Of a stretch of DNA of 64,000 bases, positions 6,322 through 53,895 are shown piece after piece. Every line of letters begins with the position of its first letter. The stretch's first letter is position 1. The stretch spans positions 220,038,001 through 220,102,000 of the forward strand of contig OZ024741.1 of the NCBI GenBank assembly GCA_964016885.1. The letters run 5' to 3'. A program made the position numbers and the translations under genes. Origin of the DNA: Eledone cirrhosa. Taxonomy: Eukaryota. Below the pieces are notes generated by a model that was given only the letters and a program-made list of their open reading frames with translations, had not been told where the DNA came from and ran no database searches.

Positions 6322-6522
6322 GATAGAGTAAGACACGCTTCACATCGGCTCCGCTATTCCATCGGGATTTACCCTTACTATTGTAAGTACCGGATAAATT
6401 TTTCAGTGCAACACATTTGGAACACTAACCCCTGTTATTTAGGGAAACATTTTTGCATTTACCCCCTTTTTAGGGGGTAAAATAAATATCTATTTTTGCC
6501 GAAAAATTTCTTTCTTGGCAGC

Positions 6523-8318
6523 ATGGCGGAAAAGATGGCAGACATGTCTGCCATTAGCTCTGCCACGCCCCCCAAGTCTGAAGAACAAAAAATAATTACA
6601 ACAAAATTAGACATTGAAACAAACAAAGAAAATGAAAAAACAAATGTTAAGGAAAATGAGCAAACAGAAAACAAACAAACAGAAAATAATACAAATAACG
6701 ACAGGGCAACTTTCGCCCAGAAAACAAAACAATCCATTACATACACACCAATTGACCTAACTGCCGCCAGAGAAAAACTGGCCGAAGCAAAGAAACACAT
6801 TGTTTTGGGGGAGAACGGAATGTTTTCCATTAACTCCCCCCCAGAATTCAAGAAAGCCAGAGCAGAAAACACAGTTCTCTACAGAACTATACTGAACCAG
6901 ACAAGAAAGCCAGCACAGCCCAGCCAAATGGAAATAGAGTTAGTCCTAAAAGACTATATGAAGAATATTCTCTTCATACGAAAGGACCGACTCTATGGCA
7001 GCATTTCGGTCCTAACAAGAGACAAAGAAACGGCGGAGAAGCTTTCCCTAAGCCCACTCTCATCGACAACATATAGCTTCTATCCCTCCTACATGGGTAG
7101 AAGAACACAGAGAGTAAAAGTAAAAACAATGCTGCCCACAATGGACTTCTGGTGGGCTATTGCTGGCTTCATTGATATGGGCGAAGACACAATGCTGTCA
7201 ATGGGGAAGGCAACTGGAGATGCGTTCCTGGGAATGGGCCTCGACATACTAGTCCAAATGAGGCCCGAAAGAATAGCACAAATCCCGGATCGCATCTGGC
7301 TGGATGACCTTACCCCAATAGACATAATTGTAGAGGGGAGAAGACCAGCATGCTATTTATGCATGGAAAGGGGACACGTTAAGGCTAACTGCCCGAAACG
7401 TATCCCCCAAAAAGGACTATTGCCCACACCCACCACAAACAGTACACCAACACCACCCACCTCCAAAAATACACTAATACCACACACAGCAAACAAAATA
7501 CAGACACCACCAACCACAAACACAACACAAACATCACCACCACCAGCACCAAACACAAGCACGACACAAAAATCACCACCACCAACCACAACACAAACAT
7601 CACCACCACCATCACCAACCACAAGCACGACACAAACATTACCACCACCACCACAAAACCCATTCCAAACAAATAATAAAAAAAACAGTAACAAATCTAC
7701 CCCTCCCGCAAAAAAAAACAACCACACAACACGTCCCTCCCACCTAGCGCTGAAGAGTTTCCCCCAACTTCTGAAGAAGAAGGAGGAGAAGCCTTCAGAC
7801 AAGTTAAAAGAAAAACAAGAAAACACACACCCAGCACACCACAAATAACCCACACACAAACACCAACTCCAATCAAAAACACCCCACCCTCAACAAACAA
7901 AAATAAATCTGCGCCTCCCCTCTCCGAAACATTGACAGCATCACAAACAAAGACGTTGCAATACACATATATAAATAAAGAAAACAAAAAACTGGTTAAA
8001 TTAATAAACAATAACCCTATGGTGCAGACCGAAGGGCCAAACTTTATCTCAACAGAGAACTTCACCCATTTAAAAATGATAAAGGTCCCTCTGGACCTTT
8101 ATCGTTCCTTAAAAGAACAATTTAGACGGGACGTGAGCCCCCCCTGTTTAAAACCGTTGAATCGCGTCCTCTTGAAAGATTTCCCCATAACCGCCCCTCT
8201 CCCTGACACAACTCCAAATACCCCAACCCCACCACACACGTGTACCCCACACCACCACAAAACATCCCTCCACCCAACACACCTGATGCCATGGAAATTA
8301 CGCAACCCGGAGAGGTAA
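6523..8318 (+). pseudogene. LINE ORF1 (gag-like, CCHC knuckle), one probable frameshift
   Basis: CYLCMERGHVKANC (CX2CX4HX4C) followed by a Pro/Thr-rich region. A frameshift in the A-run near 7710-7718 would join the 6496-7848 ORF to the 7932-8318 frame. Confidence 0.8.
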
Positions 8319-8349
8319 GTGCTTTTCTTTCTTCACTTTCAACACCAAA

Positions 8350-11300
8350 ATAGATCAATTGAGAGTTGGCTGTTTGAACGCGCGTGGCCTGGGCTCAGCT
8401 TGGAAGCAAGCAAAGCTTCTAAGTGACCTCAGGTCACAAAGTATAGATGTGATGGTTGTTTGTGAGAGTCGGATCAGCAGCGTGAGACAGCTGGCGCCCG
8501 CCTTCGATGACTTTGAGATGCACGCATCTCTCTGTCAACCCGGAGGCGGGGGGGGGGGAGTTGCCGTACTGCTGGATAAACGTCTGACTCTCGACGTACA
8601 GATTGTTCACTCGGACCCGGGGGGTCGATTACTGGTGCTGGACGTCGGAGGCGGTGAAGGTGGGGCTTTCAGACTGGTCGGTCTTTATGCTCCCTTCGGG
8701 GCGGAAAGAGCCGACTTCTTCCAGCGTCTGGAGACTTTTCTAGGAACGTCGCGTTCCCTGCTTTTAGTGGGGGACTGGAATGGAATCCTAGATGCGCGTT
8801 GGGACTATGCAGGGGCATGTCCCGATAGAGGGGGGTGTAGCAGCCTCAAGGGGTTACTCGATCGATTCGACCTGGTCGATAGATTTCGACTAGATTGTCC
8901 AACTGCGCCAACCTGGACCTGGGCAAACCGCAGTGGACAATCTAGATCGTACCTAGATAGGTTTTTGGTTAGGAGTAAGGATAGGGACGTATTTAGTTGT
9001 CCAGAACTGATCATGGTTGGCTATTCAGATCACAAATTAGTGACCTGCGTGGTCAACCTTGATAGAACGCATAGACAGGGTCCCGGTTACTGGAAGATCA
9101 ACTTGTCCTTACCGACAAAGAAAGATTACAGAAACCGGATTAGTAGCTTAGTTAAGATGCGGTTGACGGGAGCGATCGTCAACAGTAGGTGGTGGGTATC
9201 TCTAAAGAGAGAGATTAGAGTAAGTTCGATAGGTTACAGTAAGGAACTAGCGGCGAATAGAAATAGGAAGGAAAGGGAGTTAACAGATAAACTAGAAGAG
9301 GCGATTAGGAGCGGAGACGTAGCCAGAGTGTTAGCGACGAGAACGGCATTGAGACAGTTCTTTGACGCGAAGCACGAAGGCTGCGTTGTCCGAAGTAAAA
9401 TACGTGCTTTAGGAAACGAGGGGACCAAAGCTGTGAGCTGGGCCCGCGTGACAGAAGCCAAGAGTGGGATTAAATCCACCATTCGGTCTTTGCGAGACCA
9501 GGATGGACGGGTGATCCTTGAACCTGAGCGAATGTGCGAGACCTTTCAAAGGCACTTTGCTCGACTGTTCGGAGGTGGCGGGGGCCGGACGGGGATGTGG
9601 ACTTCGGTCCATACCTCGACGGTCTACCGCGTCTTTCGAGCGGCGAAGCGGAGTGCTGCGAAAGGCCAATCACAGCCACTGAAATCGGGGAAGCGCTCAG
9701 CCAATGCAGCAGACGCAAATCTCCGGGTCTCGATGGTCTACCATACGAACTTTATTTAGCTATGCCGGTCTTGTTCTCCGAACTCCTCGAGGCTGTCTAT
9801 TGCAACTGGCAACAGAACGGGAGAATTCCCTGTTCTGTGACCAAGGGCGTGGTCACGCTAGTGAGGAAGGACGAGAGCAAGGGGGACGACTTAAGTAACT
9901 TTAGGCCCATAACTCTGCTGAATGCAGAGTTACAGATTTTGGCCAAGGTGTTGGCGAAGAGGTTGGCGCTTGTGGTGGGTGGTTTGGTGGGAGACGCGCA
10001 GACATGCGCTATCCCGTCCAGGTCCATTCACGACAACCTCCACCTCATGCGATACATCATAGAGAGGGTTGGCTACGAACCCGGCTTTGGTGGGGCCCTG
10101 ATCAACTTGGATCAATCTAAGGCGTTCGATAAGGTCGACCATGGTTACCTGGATGCGGTGCTAGCGGCGGCGGGCTTCGGACCCGTTTTCAGGGGCTGGA
10201 TTTCTGCCATGCACAGTGGCAACATCTACTCTAGGATTAAAGTAAACGGCTACCTCTCGGAGCCGTTTCAAATCACCCGATCCATCAGACAGGGGTGCCC
10301 CTCTCCTCCCTTCTGTACGTATTGACTCTCGAGCCACTGCTGCGGAAGTTGGAGTTGCTGCGGGGCATACCCCTGGAACCGGGATTGCACAAAGCGGTCT
10401 CGGCCTATGCCGACGACGTAACAGTAATGGTGGCGGACGCCTCGGAAATCGGGGCGATCGCCACCCTACTGGAGGAATACGAAAGGCTGACGGGGGCTAA
10501 GCTGAACCAGGACAAGTCAGTCGGTTTGCAACTCGGAACGTGGAGGAGCAAACCGATGCCGTTAGACGGTGTCGTCGGGCGGTGGACGGAGGGCCCTATG
10601 AAGCTGCTCGGGGTCTGGTTCGGACCGGACCTCCAGGTGGAGAAGAATTGTGGCAAGGTGACGAGCAGGGTGTTTGCGCTGACCAAGAAGTGGGCCAAGT
10701 GCAAACTATCACTGAAAGGTCGGGCGGAGGTGACGAACGCTTACATAGCGTCCGTCATCTACTACCGCCTGACCGTCGTGCCTTGCCCCAAGGAAAAGCT
10801 CACCATCATGGAACACATGCTCTTCCAGTTCCTCTGGAAGAAGCGGCCTCCCATGGTGAGGAGATCCATCTGCTGCCAGCACCCTTCGAAAGGAGGGCTG
10901 GGTATGCCGTGGCTGTTGATGCGTAGGCACGCATTGAGGCTACGGCATCTACAGGTATTCCTCAACGGTCAGCCGGTGTGGGCCTCGTTTGTGAGGCGAG
11001 CCTTCCCACAGCTCGTCTCGCTCACCGAACTGCAATCCTGGGTGAAGCAAAGACCGAGAAAACTGGGCAACTGGCACACCGAGTGTGCCCAGGCGCTCAC
11101 GGCTATCTGGCAAGCGGACCCGACTGTCAGTGGAGAATCCACCTCGACATTCTATAGAGGGTTGGTGGCTAGCAGGGGCGACGACACCCTTGGAGAGTCG
11201 CTAGGCATGGAGGAGGACGAACTGGCCAGCCTGTTCGGTAGAACTTTCGGCCCGGGACCCATGGACAACTTCCAGAGGTCCCTAGCCTGGCAGTGTTACC

Positions 11301-11788
11301 GGGGGGCTCTGCCCGTTCGAGAAAAGCTCTACAGACACGGGCGCCCGGGCAGGGATCCCGCGAAAAAGATCTGTCCCAGATGCGTGCGCGACGAGGAAAC
11401 CGTTGCGCATGCACTGGTACACTGCCCGGGCGTTGCCGATCTGTGGGGCTACGTCGAACGACTGCTGTCGCGTGTGGCGCCGATTCGATTAACCGCCGAG
11501 TCTGTGGTGAACATCAAGCCGCCTCCTCCCTTCAGAAATGAAGCAGAGGCGGTCTTTCTGTGCGTAATAGCCATGATGAAAGAGGTTGTGTGGTGGACGC
11601 GCCTGAAAGGTCTGAGGTCGGGTGACTTTCTCTCCGGCCATCACCTGGTTAACTTCTTCCGATACCACTTCGGAAGAAGAATCAGGATGGAGAGAGAAGT
11701 GCTTGGTCCCAGACAGTTTTATGAAAGGTGGGTGAAAGAAGCGAGAATGGCCCGTGTAAATGGGCCTTCTCTCTACATTGTTCCGTAG
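8350..11788 (+). pseudogene. LINE ORF2 (APE endonuclease, reverse transcriptase, zinc finger) with two frameshifts
   Basis: LNARGL, GDWN, SYLDRF, SDH; KSPGLDGLP, FRPITLLN, DQSKAFD, IRQGCPLS, AYADD; CPRC..ETVAHALVHC. Frame changes near 9580 and 10295. ATA-GAT-CAA-TTG at 8350 may be a mutated ATG start. Confidence 0.93.
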
Positions 11789-18780: not shown

Positions 18781-19178
18781 TCTCACGGTTAATCATTTGC
18801 TTGTTTCTTTGTCCTGTGTCTTCCCACGATGGGATCTGTTCACCTATTCTTCTCTCCTTTTTTTCCTTTTTCGATTTCTTCCTCTCTCCTCACCACCTTT
18901 CCCCCTTTGTTATTCTTCCTCTTTTGCCTCGTTTTCCTTCCTTTTTCTCTCTCCCTTTCTCTTCTTTTCCTCCTGGCATTTTGATTAAGAAAAGGCCTCG
19001 GGCGCACCCGATCTCTTAAGATGTCCTGTAAATAAACGCCGAAACATCTGGATCGCAGATTTACAGCTGACGAAGGATTATTTCTTCTTTTCTCCTCTTG
19101 TTTCGACCTAACCACCATTCTAAATGTTTTTATTAACCACACAGCTTATTAACCACACAGCTCCTTTCGTTTCGTATC

Positions 19179-19258: not shown

Positions 19259-19327
19259 AGTGTGTGTGTGTGTATAAATATATATATATATTTAGAAATA
19301 AGAGGAAGGCACGAACGTGAGATATTT

Positions 19328-19389
19328 CCCATCATCAGTTGTCTGCTGGAGATCAAGGACATTTCTACGCATTAAAGGCATATATTGTT
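19328..19389 (-). ncRNA. Decayed permuted hammerhead candidate (family C)
   Basis: aacaatatatgcct-ttaatgcgta-GAAA-tgtccttgatctccagc-agacaa-CTGATGA-tggg; same spacing as families A and B, imperfect stems. Confidence 0.45.
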
Positions 19390-19949: not shown

Positions 19950-20472
19950 ATATGAATAAATTTATTCCTTCATCAGTGATCTTCCAGCCTTCATTGGTAT
20001 TTCATCGCTTTAAAGACCATATACCTCTGGTTGGTGCGAGCAACGGCTAAAGAAAGTCGTTGGGACACGTAAATAGGGGAAACGAGCGAGAGTGTAAACA
20101 AACAAAGATGGTAAAGCAACGAAAAGTGAGGAAGAAGGAGTCAAGTCCTTGAAATCGATGAACATAAGTTCTGTGAAATCGTAGACGAGAGAGAATAAAG
20201 ACCATCCAACCTGGTCGAAATGTGAGGGAGGAAAGAATTTCGCACAGGTCAAACGGGAGGAAGTGATGGAGAGGGAGTAGCAGAGGGTGAGTGAGTGAAA
20301 GTGTGAGGAAGAGGCTAACAGAGAGAGTGACTGGCAGAGGGGGTAAAAGGAAGTGAGAGATACAGAGAAAGGGGAAGCAGTAAGAAAGAAACAGACGGGT
20401 CACAGCGGAGGAAAATATATATATGAAAAATATGAAAACATGGCGTGCTGCGTGGCTGCAAATGGGTTACAT
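19950..20472 (-). mobile_element. Non-coding repeat family B, monomer 1
   Basis: Homologous along its length to 23436-24004; (TA)n flanks. Confidence 0.8.
19967..20025 (-). ncRNA. Non-circularly permuted hammerhead candidate (family B)
   Basis: GGTA-TA-TGGTCTT-taaagcgat-GAAA-TACC-aatgaaggctgg-AAGATCA-CTGATGA-agg. Confidence 0.7.
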
Positions 20473-23435: not shown

Positions 23436-24004
23436 TGCAACCTTGCAGTATTCTTCTCCCCATATTTTTCATATATTTACCTAAACTGCGATTCTCTGTT
23501 TCTCTCTTTCTCTCTTACTGCTCCCTCGTTCTCTCTGTTTCTCTTACCTTCTTTCGTCCCCTCTGTCAGTTAACACTTTCTCTCGACTGACATCTTCCTC
23601 GCACTTCCACTCACTCACTCTCTGTTTCTCCCCTTCTCACTCCCTCCCCTTCGCTAGGAGTCGGATTTTCCTTCTTTCTCACATCCCATTCACAGTGAAA
23701 GGTCTGTTTGCTAAGCGCTCATGAATTCACCCAGTTTATGCTGATCGAATAACCATGTTGCTTGTTTTTCTTCCCATCTTCGGTTAGCCTTTCCTTCTTG
23801 TTGTTTACTTGTCTCACTCGCTTTACGCATTTCACTTGTCCCAATAACTTATTTTAGTTATTGCTCGCACCAATGTGAGGTATATGATTTTTAATGCGAT
23901 GAAATACCAATGATCGTTGGCAAATCACTGATGAGGGACTAATTTTATAATATGTAATCCACGTGCAACCTTGCAGTATTCTTCTCCCCATATTTTTCAT
24001 ATAT
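23436..24004 (+). mobile_element. Non-coding repeat family B, monomer 2 with ~40-bp terminal redundancy
   Basis: TGCAACCTTGCAGTATTCTTCTCCCCATATTTTTCATATAT at 23436 and 23964 (unit 528 bp). Confidence 0.82.
23879..23937 (+). ncRNA. Non-circularly permuted hammerhead candidate (family B)
   Basis: GGTA-TA-TGATTT-ttaatgcgat-GAAA-TACC-aatgatcgttggc-AAATCA-CTGATGA-ggg. Confidence 0.7.
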
Positions 24005-42889: not shown

Positions 42890-45800
42890 ATCATTCAACG
42901 CGATCAGTCGCATATTTTGGCGTGGGAGACTATTTATTAAATTTAAGATGAATACTATCTCCGACAGTAATGCCCCAACTACAGTCATGTTCTGAAGACA
43001 CCTTTTATTCGAATTCGTAGAGATATCCGACTAAATACATAATTCATTTTACAAGGATTTGCTACAAACATCATGGCTGAACACAACATCAACAACAAAA
43101 TTAAGGAAGTATCGAAGACAAACAACAAGAAAGGTAAACAAACTTTATTCAGTTGTAGCTACAGAAGAAACCGAAATTATAAATCGCATTTCTCTTGGAG
43201 TTGCGAACTTTATAATGATTTATTTAATTCTAATAAAATGGCAATAAACAATCCCTCCATTGGCTATAAGAACAGAATGAAGCTACACTGGGACGAAATG
43301 CACCCAGAGCTAAATTATTTCACAGCAAAACAATTACGCCAACAAGCGACGTTTGTTGAACGTAAAAATAAGATAAATATTATTAATTGTAAGTCCTCCA
43401 CCATAAACATGGGATCAACAACACGTGCTACAGGTCGCCATGCTACTAGACTTCCTAGCAACCAGGTCGAACAGCGCCTTCAAACAACTATGCCTGTAAC
43501 AAACTTGACACCACCTATACCATCTAAGTTTACCTCGAATGCTGGGGAAAACACTATCGATAATAATAATAATCGAAGAAATAATAATAATAATAATCGA
43601 AGAAATTTGACACCACGTGCACCATCCGAGTCTACCTCGACTGTTGTGGAAAATACTATCGATAATGACAATAATCAAAAGTATAAACAATTGAAAATTT
43701 CCCTCAACGAAATCTTCCAGAGAGAAATTAATTCATGTATATATATATATCTCTTGCTGAACGTGTTAAAACGACGATGTTTAATAAAAAAAAAAAAAAA
43801 AAAATAATGAAATATAACGTGTTATTGACGAAATAGGGGATGAATATTTACGACGGATAAAAACCCCATCATTTTGGCAAATCAACGCCTGTTTATATGC
43901 CTTAGCAACGACAGTGAAGCATTATCTTGGTGATAGCAGAGATATTAACAAGAACAGAACACCACCAAATATATATATATATAAGTCATATATAACTAAA
44001 ATAGAAAAAAAGTTTGCTGACCTACGAAAAACCATAGGATATGTGACAATGCTCCTTACATGCAAACAAACACAACAAAACCTCACTCCTAACCAACAAA
44101 GAGTGAAAAATAAAATAGAGACGATGTTTGGTAACAGTAGAACCAGAACTCTTCAATATAAGCTGATCACCCTCAAACAAGAATTGAGAGCTGTTAGCGA
44201 AAAACGCCGATACCTGAAGAAGGTAGATGTGAGAAAAGTGCTTAATAAAAGATTCAGACGAAACCAAACATCAGTCTATAGAGATATGAAGAACAAAATA
44301 ATAAGTGTCACTGAGCCCCCATCCCAGAAAGACATAGATTCCTTTTGGAGCAAAATATGGGGTGAAAAGAAGAATTTCAACCAAGATGTAGTGTGGCTAA
44401 GAGAAATCCGAAAGAACTATTGCTCCTTCACTACAACAAAAACATACGAAATAAGTGAGGGTACCCTTGAGACTGTGATAGAAAAACTCCAAGATAAGAA
44501 AACACCAGGAAGAGACATGATTGTCGGCTACTGGTACAAAAAACTGATATTCTATCGGAGGTATCTTACTGACCTCTACCAACAAGTTCTTAAGGGAGAT
44601 ACATTTATCCCAGAATGGTTGACATTAGCACAAACGTTACTGGTTCCCAAGAACAAAGACACCCACTTGGCAAAATACTACCAACCCAATGCATGCCAGA
44701 ACCTGATGTATAAGATACAGCCTGCCTGAACCTATTCCTCCAAGATCACTGTGAAAATAATAACATTATCACAGATGAACAAGCATCTGGAAAGAAAGGG
44801 GTTTGAGGATGTACTGAAAAACTCCTAATCAACAAAACTCCGATGTCGGAGGTGCGCAACTTAGGAGGAATATGGATACAGTCTGGCTGGACTACAGGAA
44901 AGCTTTCGATTCTGTTCCCCACTCTTGGATGATAGAGGCCCTCCAACTTGCTAAAGTCCCAAACATTAATGTCAGAGCCATAGAGAGGCTCTCTTCTTCT
45001 TGGGCTACTATCCTAAGGTTAAAGACAGAGAGGAAGGGCTCTATTTTCACTGATAAAATAAAATATCACAGGGGTATATTTCAGGGGCACAGTCCCTCTG
45101 TGATATTATTCATCTTGTCATTAAACCCCTTATCCTTTCTGCTCAAGAAATGTGAGGGATACATCATTGGCTCACAGGAGGACAGAAATACGAACCTTAC
45201 CCATAATTTCTTTGTGGACGATCTGAAACTCTATGCCAAGAACATGGACGGGATGAAGAAATATCTTGACCTGGTTACAACGTTCTCAAAGTATATAGGA
45301 CTGGAGTTTGGCCAAGTTAAATGCTCATACATGACTGTAAAGCGGGGAAAAACAACAACCCAATCTTGCAACATTGTCATGAATGGTCTAACTGTTTCAC
45401 CGATATCTGATGTGGACTGCTACAGATACCTGGGGATAGATGAGAACATATCCTATAATGGTATCTGTAATAAGGAACGCGTAACCAGGGAATACTACAC
45501 CCGATTAAGGAAGATTTGGTCATCGAAACTCTCTGCGCAAAACAAAACAGTTGCACCCAATGTGTTTGCTGTGCCTGTCCTAACACCAATGTTTGGAATA
45601 CTCAATTGGACAATAGACGAAATCCGAGCAGTTGATATTGGAACTTGAAAAATACTAAACAACACCGGAAACGTCCACATCAACAGTGACATAGACCGCC
45701 TTTACTTGTAAATTCCAATGAGAGAGTTTTGTGTCTATGTTAGAAACCGACTCTCTTTCTAATGGGAAAAAATTTGTGAAATTAGAAAACCAGAAGAACA

Positions 45801-47265
45801 TACATACATACATAATACATATATATATATACATACATACATAATACATACATACATAGATACATACATACATACATACATACATACATACATACATACA
45901 TACATACATACATACATACATACATACTTCCACATCAACATGACATAGACCCCTTTACTTGAAACGTAAGCAGGGAGGCAGAGGCCTAACATCAGTCCAG
46001 ACAACATTTGAATGTCGCATCATATCTCTCCGACAATATCTACTAACCTCGAAGCGTAGGAGCCCGCTTCTCGAGCAAGTCTATCTGCATGAAACAGATA
46101 AGGTCATGAGAGTTGGGAAGGAACTCCTCGAGAGATATTCCCTGTGTGATAATCAAAAACTCACACCCAGGGATGTCGCTCAGCAGTATCGCAGTGAATA
46201 CATGGATGAAAAACTGCATGCCTATCAGCAAAAAATCATGTATGGATATGTTGCCAGTAAGCTCCAGAGTGAGAGTAATATAGATAAGGAAAGTAGACTA
46301 TCTTGGACCAACAACCGCTATATTGGCTCCCACTTTGATGGATACGCTTTTGCAATCCAAGAACAGGAGATTAGCACGAAATACCTGATTCACAAAAGAG
46401 ATAGGGATGCAGGCAAAACACCTCGATGTGATAACAAGTGCAGACTCTGCAGAACTAACATCGAGGACATCACCCATGTCATCAGCAGCTGTCCAAAGAT
46501 GTCATCGCGGTACTATCTACCTAAGAGGCATGATGTAGTGGCCAAAACCGTGTACAATGCAGTTCGTAAAAAAGATAGCCCCGATCTTAAACACATTAAA
46601 AGCTACAACAATGTGGAAGACATCCTGGTACATAATATGAAAGAGTACTGGTGGAATGTTCCAGTAAAACCCCAATAAAATGCAGGCCTAACAGATCAGA
46701 TATTATGATATGGGACAGAGAGAAGAAAGCATGCTCAGTAGGGGAAATTAGCTGCCCAGTAGATGCCAATATAATATCAAAGATTAGTGAAAAGGAGAAT
46801 ATTTATGCAGAACGGATGAGAAATCTGCAGATACTCCATCCTGATTCCATCTTCAGATTTATGCCTGTGATTATTGGGGCACTGGGGTATGTTAGTAACT
46901 GCCTCAATACAAATCTTGAGAAGCTAGGCTTCACAGGAACACAAAGAACACAACTAGTTAGGAAATTACAAGTACAATCCATTAATGGAACAGTAAAAAA
47001 TGTAAAACATTCCAAAAAATGTGCAGCTAATAACTGCATATACACATGTACAGATACAAAGCATATACACATGCACACATACAACTCAAAACATACACAT
47101 CCACACATACAATAACATCCATATCTACACATGCATGCATGCATACATAATTTACCTAGTTGATGTTGTGTAAATTCCAATGAGAGAGTCTTGTGTCTAT
47201 GTTAGAAACCGACTCTCTTTCTATTGGGAAAAAAATTGTGAAATTAGAAAACCAGAAGAACATAC
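42888..47265 (+). mobile_element. Near full-length decayed R4/Dong-like non-LTR retrotransposon (RT + RLE)
   Basis: FWSKIW, PGRDMIVGYWYK, WLDYRKAFDSVPH, RGIFQG, FVDDLKLY, YRYLG, GGRGL, CRLC..HVISSC..RHD, NRSDIMI..EISCP; flanked by (CATA)n. Confidence 0.88.
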
Positions 47266-52894: not shown

Positions 52895-53895
52895 CTTCCT
52901 CTCCTTTCATCTATCTTCATCTAACATCTACCCAAGTGTTTCATCAAGATTATAAGTGATAAAACTACTTTCTTCTCTTCATCTCTCTTCATCTAACATC
53001 TACCCAATAGTATTCCTAAGATGACAGGCGATGAAACTAGTTTCACCTCGTCATCTCTCTTCATCTAACATCTACCCAATAGTATTCCTAAGATGACAGG
53101 CGATGAAACTACTTTCACCTCGTCATCTCTCTTCATCTAACATCTACCCAATTCTATCCCCAAGATGATAAGAGTTGAAACCAGTTTCATCTCTTCATCG
53201 CTCTCCATCTAACATCTACCCAACAATATCACCAAGATTATAGGCTATAAAACTAATTTCACCTCTTCATGTACCCAAGTGTACAGGCGATGAAACCAAT
53301 TTTAAATCTTCATCTATCTTCATCTAACATGTACCCAAGTGTATAGGCAATAGAACCAGTTTTAACTCTTCATCGATTTTCATCTAACATCTATCCAACA
53401 GTAACCCCAAGATAACAAGCGTTGAAACTAGTTTTACCTCTTCATCGCTCTTCGTCTAACATCTACCCAAGTGTATCACCAAGATGAAAGGCGATGAAAC
53501 TAATTTCACCTCTTCATCTAACATCTACCCAACAGTATCCTCAAGATGATAGGCTATGAAACATGTTTTAACTTTTCATCTATCTTTATCTAACATGTAC
53601 CCAAGTGTATCCCGAAAATGAGAGGTGATGAAACTAGTTTTAACCCTCAATCCATCTTTATCTAACATGTTCCCAAGAGTACAGGCGATGAAACCAATTT
53701 TACCTCTTCATCTATCTTCATTTAAGACGTACCCAAGTCTACCCCAAGGTGATGGGCGATGGAATCAGTTTTAACTCTTCATCTATCTTCATCTAACATG
53801 TTCCCAAGAGTAACCCCAAGATTATAAGTGATGAAACCAGTTTTAACTCTAACATGTAATCCCAAACATGATAGGCGTTGGAACGAGTTTTAACG
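52895..53895. repeat. Degenerate ~70-bp tandem repeat, ~15 units
   Basis: Recurrent TTCATCTAACATCTACCCAA..AAGATGA..GATGAAACTAGTTT. Confidence 0.85.

Follow-up and report, generated by a model that had tools for sequence, protein, structure and literature searches.

A preliminary description of a 64,000-nt stretch of Eledone cirrhosa DNA (hereafter the window; positions are counted from its first letter) reported the core residues of a hammerhead ribozyme in permuted order at positions 19967 to 20025. This raises the question of whether the locus encodes a folded, self-cleaving RNA and what kind of element carries it. On the basis of comparative modelling, we propose that it is likely a self-cleaving permuted hammerhead, located at the 3' end of a non-coding repeat of ~520 bp, the repeat itself being likely a non-autonomous, retrozyme-like derivative of a Naiad Penelope-like element (PLE). 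We assign this reading a probability of about 0.75.

The permuted core in the window

On the minus strand, positions 20025 to 19967 read GGTA-UA, stem I (TGGTCTT), TAAA, GCGAT, GAAA, TACC, a linker, AAGATCA, CUGAUGA and AGG, exactly as first reported. The compensatory changes relative to the copy at 23879(+), whose stem I is TGATTT/AAATCA, are also real (a C-G to T-A double change and a G-U to A-U change). The claimed spacings hold for the copies at 19967, 23879, 19067 and 63518, with 16, 16, 15 and 15 nt, respectively, from the predicted cut to GAAA, and 23, 23, 22 and 24 nt from GAAA to CUGA.

We searched the window with a descriptor made of stems I and III and the core in the order cleavage site, GAAA, CUGAnGA (S-G-C), using 100 block-wise dinucleotide shuffles as a control. 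Exactly four sites were found, with residue H17 at 19025(+), 20020(-), 23884(+) and 63562(-), versus four in total in the 100 shuffles. In the E. cirrhosa genome (3.0 Gb), a G-then-C pattern yielded 16,276 matches versus 3 for its reversed control. As had been supposed, the permuted core is thus a motif class beyond chance, matched far more often than in the controls, which were shuffled sequence for the window and the reversed pattern for the genome. No Rfam model, including those for hammerheads, matched the 64-kb window at the gathering threshold, and at E ≤ 10 only microsatellite-driven miRNA matches and weak C/D snoRNA matches were obtained. Rfam is without a model for the permuted motif.

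The carrier of the 19967 copy, family B, had been described as unrelated to family A. Direct alignments between B1 (a subfamily of B) and A monomers are never longer than 16 nt; intermediates bridge them, a B-like locus (L131) and an A-type locus (L136) aligning with 70% identity over 200 nt (E = 2e-18). The two families are therefore distant kin, and the motif recurs by descent. In addition, the motif reaches ~45 nt further 5' than first noted, to position 20066. Its predicted parts, together with the other copies in the window, are the following:

19952-20470 (-): family B1 element, one non-coding monomer of ~519 bp between AT-dinucleotide microsatellite tracts; dispersed and tandem copies 96-97% identical; longest ATG ORF 52 aa
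19965-20066 (-): whole predicted permuted hammerhead (six-helix model)
20063-20066 (-): 5' strand of helix Y, GUCC; 86% paired, five two-sided cells at one pair
20041-20062 (-): hairpin Z, 7 bp, with one A.C mismatch in this copy; two-sided change in 4 of 7 pairs
20036-20039 (-): 5' strand of stem II, UCGC, upstream of the cleavage site; pairs 41-76 to 44-73 formed in 21-23 of 23 copies
20029-20034 (-): 5' strand of helix X (stem I-II interaction); 94% paired, 5 of 6 pairs with two-sided change
20020-20025 (-): stem III strand GGUA, U16.1 (20021) and H17 = A (20020); cut predicted at 20020/20019 by analogy with hammerheads
20013-20019 (-): stem I strand after the predicted cut; two-sided change in 5 of 7 pairs
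20004-20008 (-): 3' strand of stem II, GCGA, and U11.1 (covariation model)
19996-20003 (-): GAAA core and stem III partner UACC (invariant core; pairing)
19984-19989 (-): 3' strand of helix X, with one A.C mismatch in subfamily B1 (per-sequence parse)
19970-19983 (-): stem I partner and CUGAUGA core (19976-19970; core pattern)
19965-19969 (-): A10.1, which pairs with U11.1, and 3' strand of helix Y; GGAA here, GGAC in sister copies (copy comparison)
23437-24000 (+): family B2 element, 70% identical to B1 by alignment, with a 36-bp terminal direct repeat resembling a pseudo-LTR
23838-23939 (+): predicted permuted hammerhead of B2, predicted cut after 23884; the sole window copy passing the strict six-helix descriptor
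19290-19380 (-): third B-type copy, its 5' part missing up to about the predicted cut (copy comparison)
18968-19077 (+): family A copy with the same six-helix layout and a GUC triplet, predicted cut after 19025 (descriptor, parse)
63506-63621 (-): second family A copy, GUC triplet, predicted cut after 63562 (descriptor, parse)

Architecture and covariation of the fold

From 5' to 3', the ~100-nt fold runs Y-Z-II-X-III-cut-I-II'-GAAA-III'-X'-I'-CUGAUGA-Y' and comprises six helices. Its core follows the non-circular order of type SGC or, rotated, CSG. Something had been thought to replace stem II; stem II itself is present, its strand before GAAA pairing with a strand displaced to ~15 nt upstream of the cut, a location that was found by comparing subfamilies. 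The CG-containing linker noted before GAAA does exist, and is not a mere linker, as it forms stem II with this upstream strand; similarly, the NGG noted after CUGAYGA is present, its role in the model being that of the 3' strand of an extra helix, Y. The displaced strand is followed by the 5' strand of helix X, whose partner lies just 5' of the stem I partner, like the I-II interaction helix of SGC, and is preceded by hairpin Z and strand Y, which pairs with GGAC-like bases after CUGAnGA.

The model was assessed on 23 B-type copies, which were hand-picked to span subfamilies and are the same sequences from which it was derived. In these, 88.3% of cells were paired, with two-sided changes in 20 of 36 pairs, including 3 of 5 in stem III and 1 of 5 in Y (X, stem I and Z as listed above). 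There were 87 two-sided cells versus 24 in shuffles, a value reached by none of 500 shuffles, and slid controls were 30-48% paired; as the copies are related and stem from few subfamily lineages, these counts represent few events. Central stem II pairs were near-invariant within B and varied between families only.

A canonical stem II, formed with the strand after CUGAnGA, was rejected: 36% of its cells were paired, with only 0-3 of the 23 copies pairing at three of its five positions, and it fails past the first pair. That first pair is made canonically in B (A9-N10.1 with N11.1) in 17 of the 23 copies, with four pair types, which places the strand exchange one pair out, in a four-way junction. 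In family A (18 copies), the upstream strand supplies G10.1 (G-C in all 18) and no canonical stem II pair is formed; 94% of cells were paired under the model, with X left out for its variable register. Family C (14 old copies) was 83% paired, its covariation not exceeding that of shuffles.

The residues CUGA-GA and GAAA were invariant in alignments A1 to A3, while N7 varied. Cut triplets were AUA, AUC, GUC, GUU and GUA, and H17 was never G in the 11 parsed representatives, a non-G residue being demanded by the parser. This per-sequence parser recovered the helices in 11 of 16 representatives, each family having helix sequences of its own; the other five, decayed copies of families C, G, H and E, were left unparsed at stems I/III.

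The 19967 copy is among the weakest: X and Z each contain an A.C mismatch, Y has a mismatch private to this copy, and the strict descriptor (levels 2-3), which one of the four window copies passes, rejects it. When upstream sequence was shuffled, its parser score was reached by 5 of 60 shuffles, and that of the 23879 copy by none of 60. MFE folding gave z scores of -0.2 to -2.3 but cannot draw pseudoknots, and was counted neither for nor against the model.

Comparison with known hammerheads

As in hammerheads, stems I, II and III abut the core and covary. Canonical types I, II and III have the cyclic order C-G-S and no core pseudoknot, whereas the order here is S-G-C. This cyclic order, the complete set of core residues, the short stem I-to-II linker (often UUAA) and the additional helix (X) that connects stems I and II at their far sides are shared with types SGC (HRIMA-1) and CSG, which cleave in vitro at 0.004-0.19 per min according to the accessible parts of Eckert et al. 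(2023; PMC10085705). In those types, block C is intact and stem II combines the strand directly after CUGAnGA with the strand before GAAA. Here, by contrast, the former strand sits ~95 nt upstream, with Y and hairpin Z inserted at the joint; B retains one canonical 10.1-11.1 pair, and A and the Naiads retain none. In the text accessible to us, the CUGAnGA-stem II joint is assumed to be uninterruptible; the activity of SGC/CSG permutations is thus not automatically transferable, since a split block C breaks their contiguity rule. The same text places SGC only in metatranscriptomes and CSG in two unique soil-DNA sequences, neither being recorded there in genomes of known organisms.

Canonical-order hammerheads at PLE ends also have their core at the element end and allow irregularity between positions 9 and 10.1; they lack stem III and act as dimers, whereas the full stem III found here makes the structure complete as a monomer. 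Other hammerhead designs are described in PMC544870 and PMC11300833, whose accessible parts contain no test of an insertion at A9. A literature search, with little reach into subscription papers, retrieved no link of permuted hammerheads to PLEs and no description of a split block. The S-G-C order is already published (PMC10085705), and the split-block topology and the Naiad link are new as far as searched.

Copies in the genome and carrier element

Three further patterns were searched in the E. cirrhosa genome. A pattern spanning the cut site and GAAA gave 8,970 matches (control, 0), nine of which were spaced ~740 bp apart in one tandem run; an A-type pattern gave 1,189 (control, 0); and a looser pattern gave 241 (control, 15) and revealed further families, the G-then-C core being present in at least seven.

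The motif lies near the 3' end of the B1 monomer. Among 40 full-length matches scored out of 3,698 candidates, the window copy itself apart, identity to that copy was 96-97%. B1 copies occurred singly, head-to-tail with up to four full units in 3.3-kb loci, or with inverted, 5'-truncated partners. Unit lengths were mostly 470-790 bp, the longest ORF being 52 aa, and 3' ends ran into (TA)n either 15-19 nt (13/40) or 55-74 nt (14/40) past the core. Internal 129-bp duplications were common in B1 elements (e.g., L012 and L013), giving units of 630-680 bp. At one locus (L060:2-1050), the C-terminal GIY-YIG ORF of a Neptune-like PLE was followed by a canonical-order hammerhead-like core, and a B copy was inserted in the adjacent (TA)n. 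Of the 23 variable positions listed for contigs of one sample (two public runs), none fell within 19963-20027, a weak hint from sequence comparison that the ribozyme region may be the most conserved part of the element.

Non-coding tandem units with a putative ribozyme, (TA)n targets, and truncated and inverted copies are the features of a non-autonomous PLE derivative or non-LTR retrozyme. One proposal for non-LTR retrozymes is that they derive from PLEs and are non-autonomous (Cervera and de la Pena 2020, PMC7229834; Li et al., bioRxiv 10.64898/2026.07.22.740005; both in their accessible parts). According to the same texts, metazoan non-LTR retrozymes are likewise non-coding, low-GC and head-to-tail, with one hammerhead per unit. 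Known retrozymes differ in having type I hammerheads and units of 170-400 nt (same sources), rather than a permuted putative ribozyme in units of 470-790 bp.

Probable link to Naiad Penelope-like elements

The accessible parts of Craig et al. (2021; PMC8557442) and its supplement describe Naiads as being without a canonical hammerhead, ten being tagged 'HHR_core' and eight 'HHR_half_core', the only tag of Naiad_Ovul. They give (TA)n targets, partial tandems, pseudo-LTRs and inverted 5'-truncated copies as hallmarks of PLEs and Naiads, and all of these are shared by the elements studied here, as is the split fold at the 3' end when read by eye. Unlike Naiads, families A and B encode no protein.

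In the part of the supplement read by eye, the split six-helix form was recognized in at least 10 of 54 Naiad consensi and type CSG with an intact block C in at least 7 of 54, i.e., permuted forms in at least 17 of 54 among those seen. Split-form 3' ends were those of Naiad_Obim, Naiad_Ovul, Naiad_Amil, _Aacu and _Anas (names taken from the header that follows), and of five more records that file order places among ctenophores, hydrozoans and box jellyfish, one of which has a stem I of 2 bp only; the layout is common to all of these ends, and their helix sequences are unrelated. The likeness of the motif studied here to the Octopus Naiad ends is suggestive of a cephalopod host. The CSG form was found in seven records, two of them identified by header as Naiad-2 and -3_Nbra; these ends, from nematodes and one other source, match Eckert CSG-1/2 segment for segment. 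Four segments with CUGAnGA fit neither form in this by-eye parse. In the accessible File S2, canonical PLEs have ordinary-order cores, as does the Neptune-like PLE end in L060. Three Naiad records, Octopus by file order, carry CUGAAGA near the 5' end; the strand that comes next is complementary to sequence further upstream, and the two may belong to a second structured RNA.

Public metagenome contigs (2 of 64 parts scanned) contained a family close to the Acropora Naiad end. Stems I and III were present in 6 of 120 pattern matches there, versus 0 of 120 in viral contigs. One coral-Naiad-like contig (L206) parses into all six helices, with sequences different from those of A and B. In a second metagenome family (L246:1-90 and L303), an S-G-C core with perfect stems I and III is ended by contig edges.

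In the fetched loci, no Naiad ORF (N-terminal GIY-YIG, CxC motif, C-terminal RT) was present upstream of the motif, and A and B monomers were non-coding. No autonomous Naiad was found in the E. cirrhosa genome by ORF scans of motif loci, or in twelve 7-8 kb stretches together with tblastn using PLE RT; two Octopus-Naiad motif searches gave 0 matches each, and a DNA search with family E gave 3 matches and no partner.

Truncation edge at the predicted cut

Were the RNA cleaved, a reverse transcriptase that started at its 3' end would be expected to reach the cleaved end in some cases and stop there. Among the 12 copies of the coral-Naiad-like family, seven have their 5' end 1-9 nt beyond the predicted cut (8-16 nt upstream of GAAA, with the cut at 17), no copy starts in the next 33 nt (18-50 nt upstream of GAAA), and five extend further. 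This set was reduced from 13 rows to 12 by dropping L197, a chance match in an activated-sludge contig, and six of the seven truncated copies come from one assembly. In the E. cirrhosa genome, 8 of 98 B copies start in the cut-side window (~3-fold over background, Poisson p ~0.01), a count that includes two fold-back pairs, which are not independent, and 5 of 36 A copies do so (~6-fold, p ~0.002). Family C exhibited no excess near the cut (1/19). These edges suggest that cleavage by a PLE ribozyme in vivo has left its mark in the genome. The alternative, stalling of the RT at helices, predicts no edge at the predicted scissile bond.

Proposed mechanism and alternative explanations

In the proposed mechanism, stems I to III of the folded RNA would surround the CUGAnGA/GAAA core and helix X would hold stems I and II together, like its counterpart in SGC/CSG, with Y and hairpin Z inserted where CUGAnGA normally enters stem II and Y closing the 5' and 3' ends. 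The cut is predicted after AUA (20020). It would separate Y, Z, II and X from the catalytic core, and the two products would stay joined by four helices, a situation that might promote re-ligation. When transcription reads through tandem copies, cleavage would yield RNAs of unit length, which might then be circularised, as described for retrozymes in the accessible part of PMC7229834. The Naiad endonuclease/RT would nick (TA)n, and cDNA synthesis would begin ~17 or ~60 nt beyond the core, where the sequence is AU-rich; such priming would generate monomers, partial tandems, inverted copies and copies ending at the cut 5' end. For PAc, another PLE, the accessible part of PMC11167929 reports priming from internal sites, and hammerhead cleavage that is protein-assisted and dispensable for TPRT/insertion in vitro.

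Three other explanations were weighed. The fold might be hammerhead-derived, with catalysis lost in the short elements, and serve as an RNA signal for internal initiation by the Naiad RT, truncations resulting from RT stalling. The fixed distances at which 3' ends lie past the core fit such a signal, as do the weak, mismatched B1 helices and the in vitro insertion of PAc hammerhead mutants. We consider it unlikely, as the catalytic residues are invariant across diverged families while N7 varies, and the truncation edge of the coral-like copies is sharp, lying 1 nt beyond the predicted scissile bond. Alternatively, the ribozyme could be active and the short elements be mobilised by a different retroelement, whether a canonical PLE or a LINE, or amplify on their own as RNA circles, the Naiad match reflecting origin only. 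This agrees with the failure to find an autonomous Naiad in the genome, with the Poseidon/Neptune-like RT/EN fragments in motif loci, and with the description of cephalopod Naiads as old remnants (PMC8557442, accessible part), whereas B1 copies are 96% identical. Nevertheless, (TA)n targeting, the tandem and inverted anatomy and the ribozyme type all fit Naiads, and the ends of the Neptune-like element in L060 and of the canonical PLEs seen in File S2 have ordinary-order cores, which makes another mobiliser quite improbable.

A C/D-box snoRNA-like or chance motif, passively amplified inside a repeat, is very improbable. C/D snoRNA models of Rfam do match both B copies, at E values of 1.1-3.5 and 20-25 bits versus gathering thresholds of 65-85, and copy number, however high, requires no function. 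Against this, the box-C-like letters before GAAA are lost in families A and C, six helices covary, and the layout recurs with other sequences in coral-like, octopus and jellyfish-order Naiad ends, which largely refutes it.

Implications and other observations in the window

It appears probable that Naiads of ctenophores, cnidarians, nematodes, arthropods and molluscs use permuted hammerheads, CSG in some lineages and the six-helix, split-core form in others. If they do, rare metagenomic oddities would be among the most abundant ribozymes of invertebrate genomes, and a whole class of permuted-ribozyme retrozymes would be invisible to Rfam and existing descriptors. This would offer a possible answer to the stated puzzle that Naiads alone among animal PLEs are seemingly without hammerheads. 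Non-circular permutations would move from a few hundred orphan metagenomic sequences to animal genomes, with tens of thousands of copies and a biological context. The topology would itself be new for a hammerhead, in that the backbone would leave the core immediately behind A9 or 10.1, an arrangement taken to be impossible in current searches, and the truncation edge would record PLE ribozyme cleavage in vivo, something RNA-seq had not shown for PAc. The orphan soil-DNA CSG-1/2 agree with nematode Naiad 3' ends in segment order and in their short AA-rich linker, as far as the accessible parts of both sources go, and the Eckert soil-DNA ribozymes may thus be Naiad ends from soil animals.

Other structures were observed in the window. 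Two canonical-order minimal cores of the canonical-PLE kind (CUGAUGA, an extra A, a 4-bp stem II, GAAA and a palindromic ACGU) are located at 31839(-) and 1297(-), with no evident stem I. A 62-72-bp tandem repeat occupies 52906-53850; within its unit, a stretch of GCGAUGAAAC is similar to the family B G block, and a pattern scan of the repeat found no CUGAnGA. Two frameshifted LINE-type elements, unrelated to the motif, lie at 6481-11788(+) (endonuclease, RT, zf-RVT) and 43043-46678(+) (RT). Finally, a 59-bp satellite at 56804-59991 comprises 54 copies that are 98% identical.
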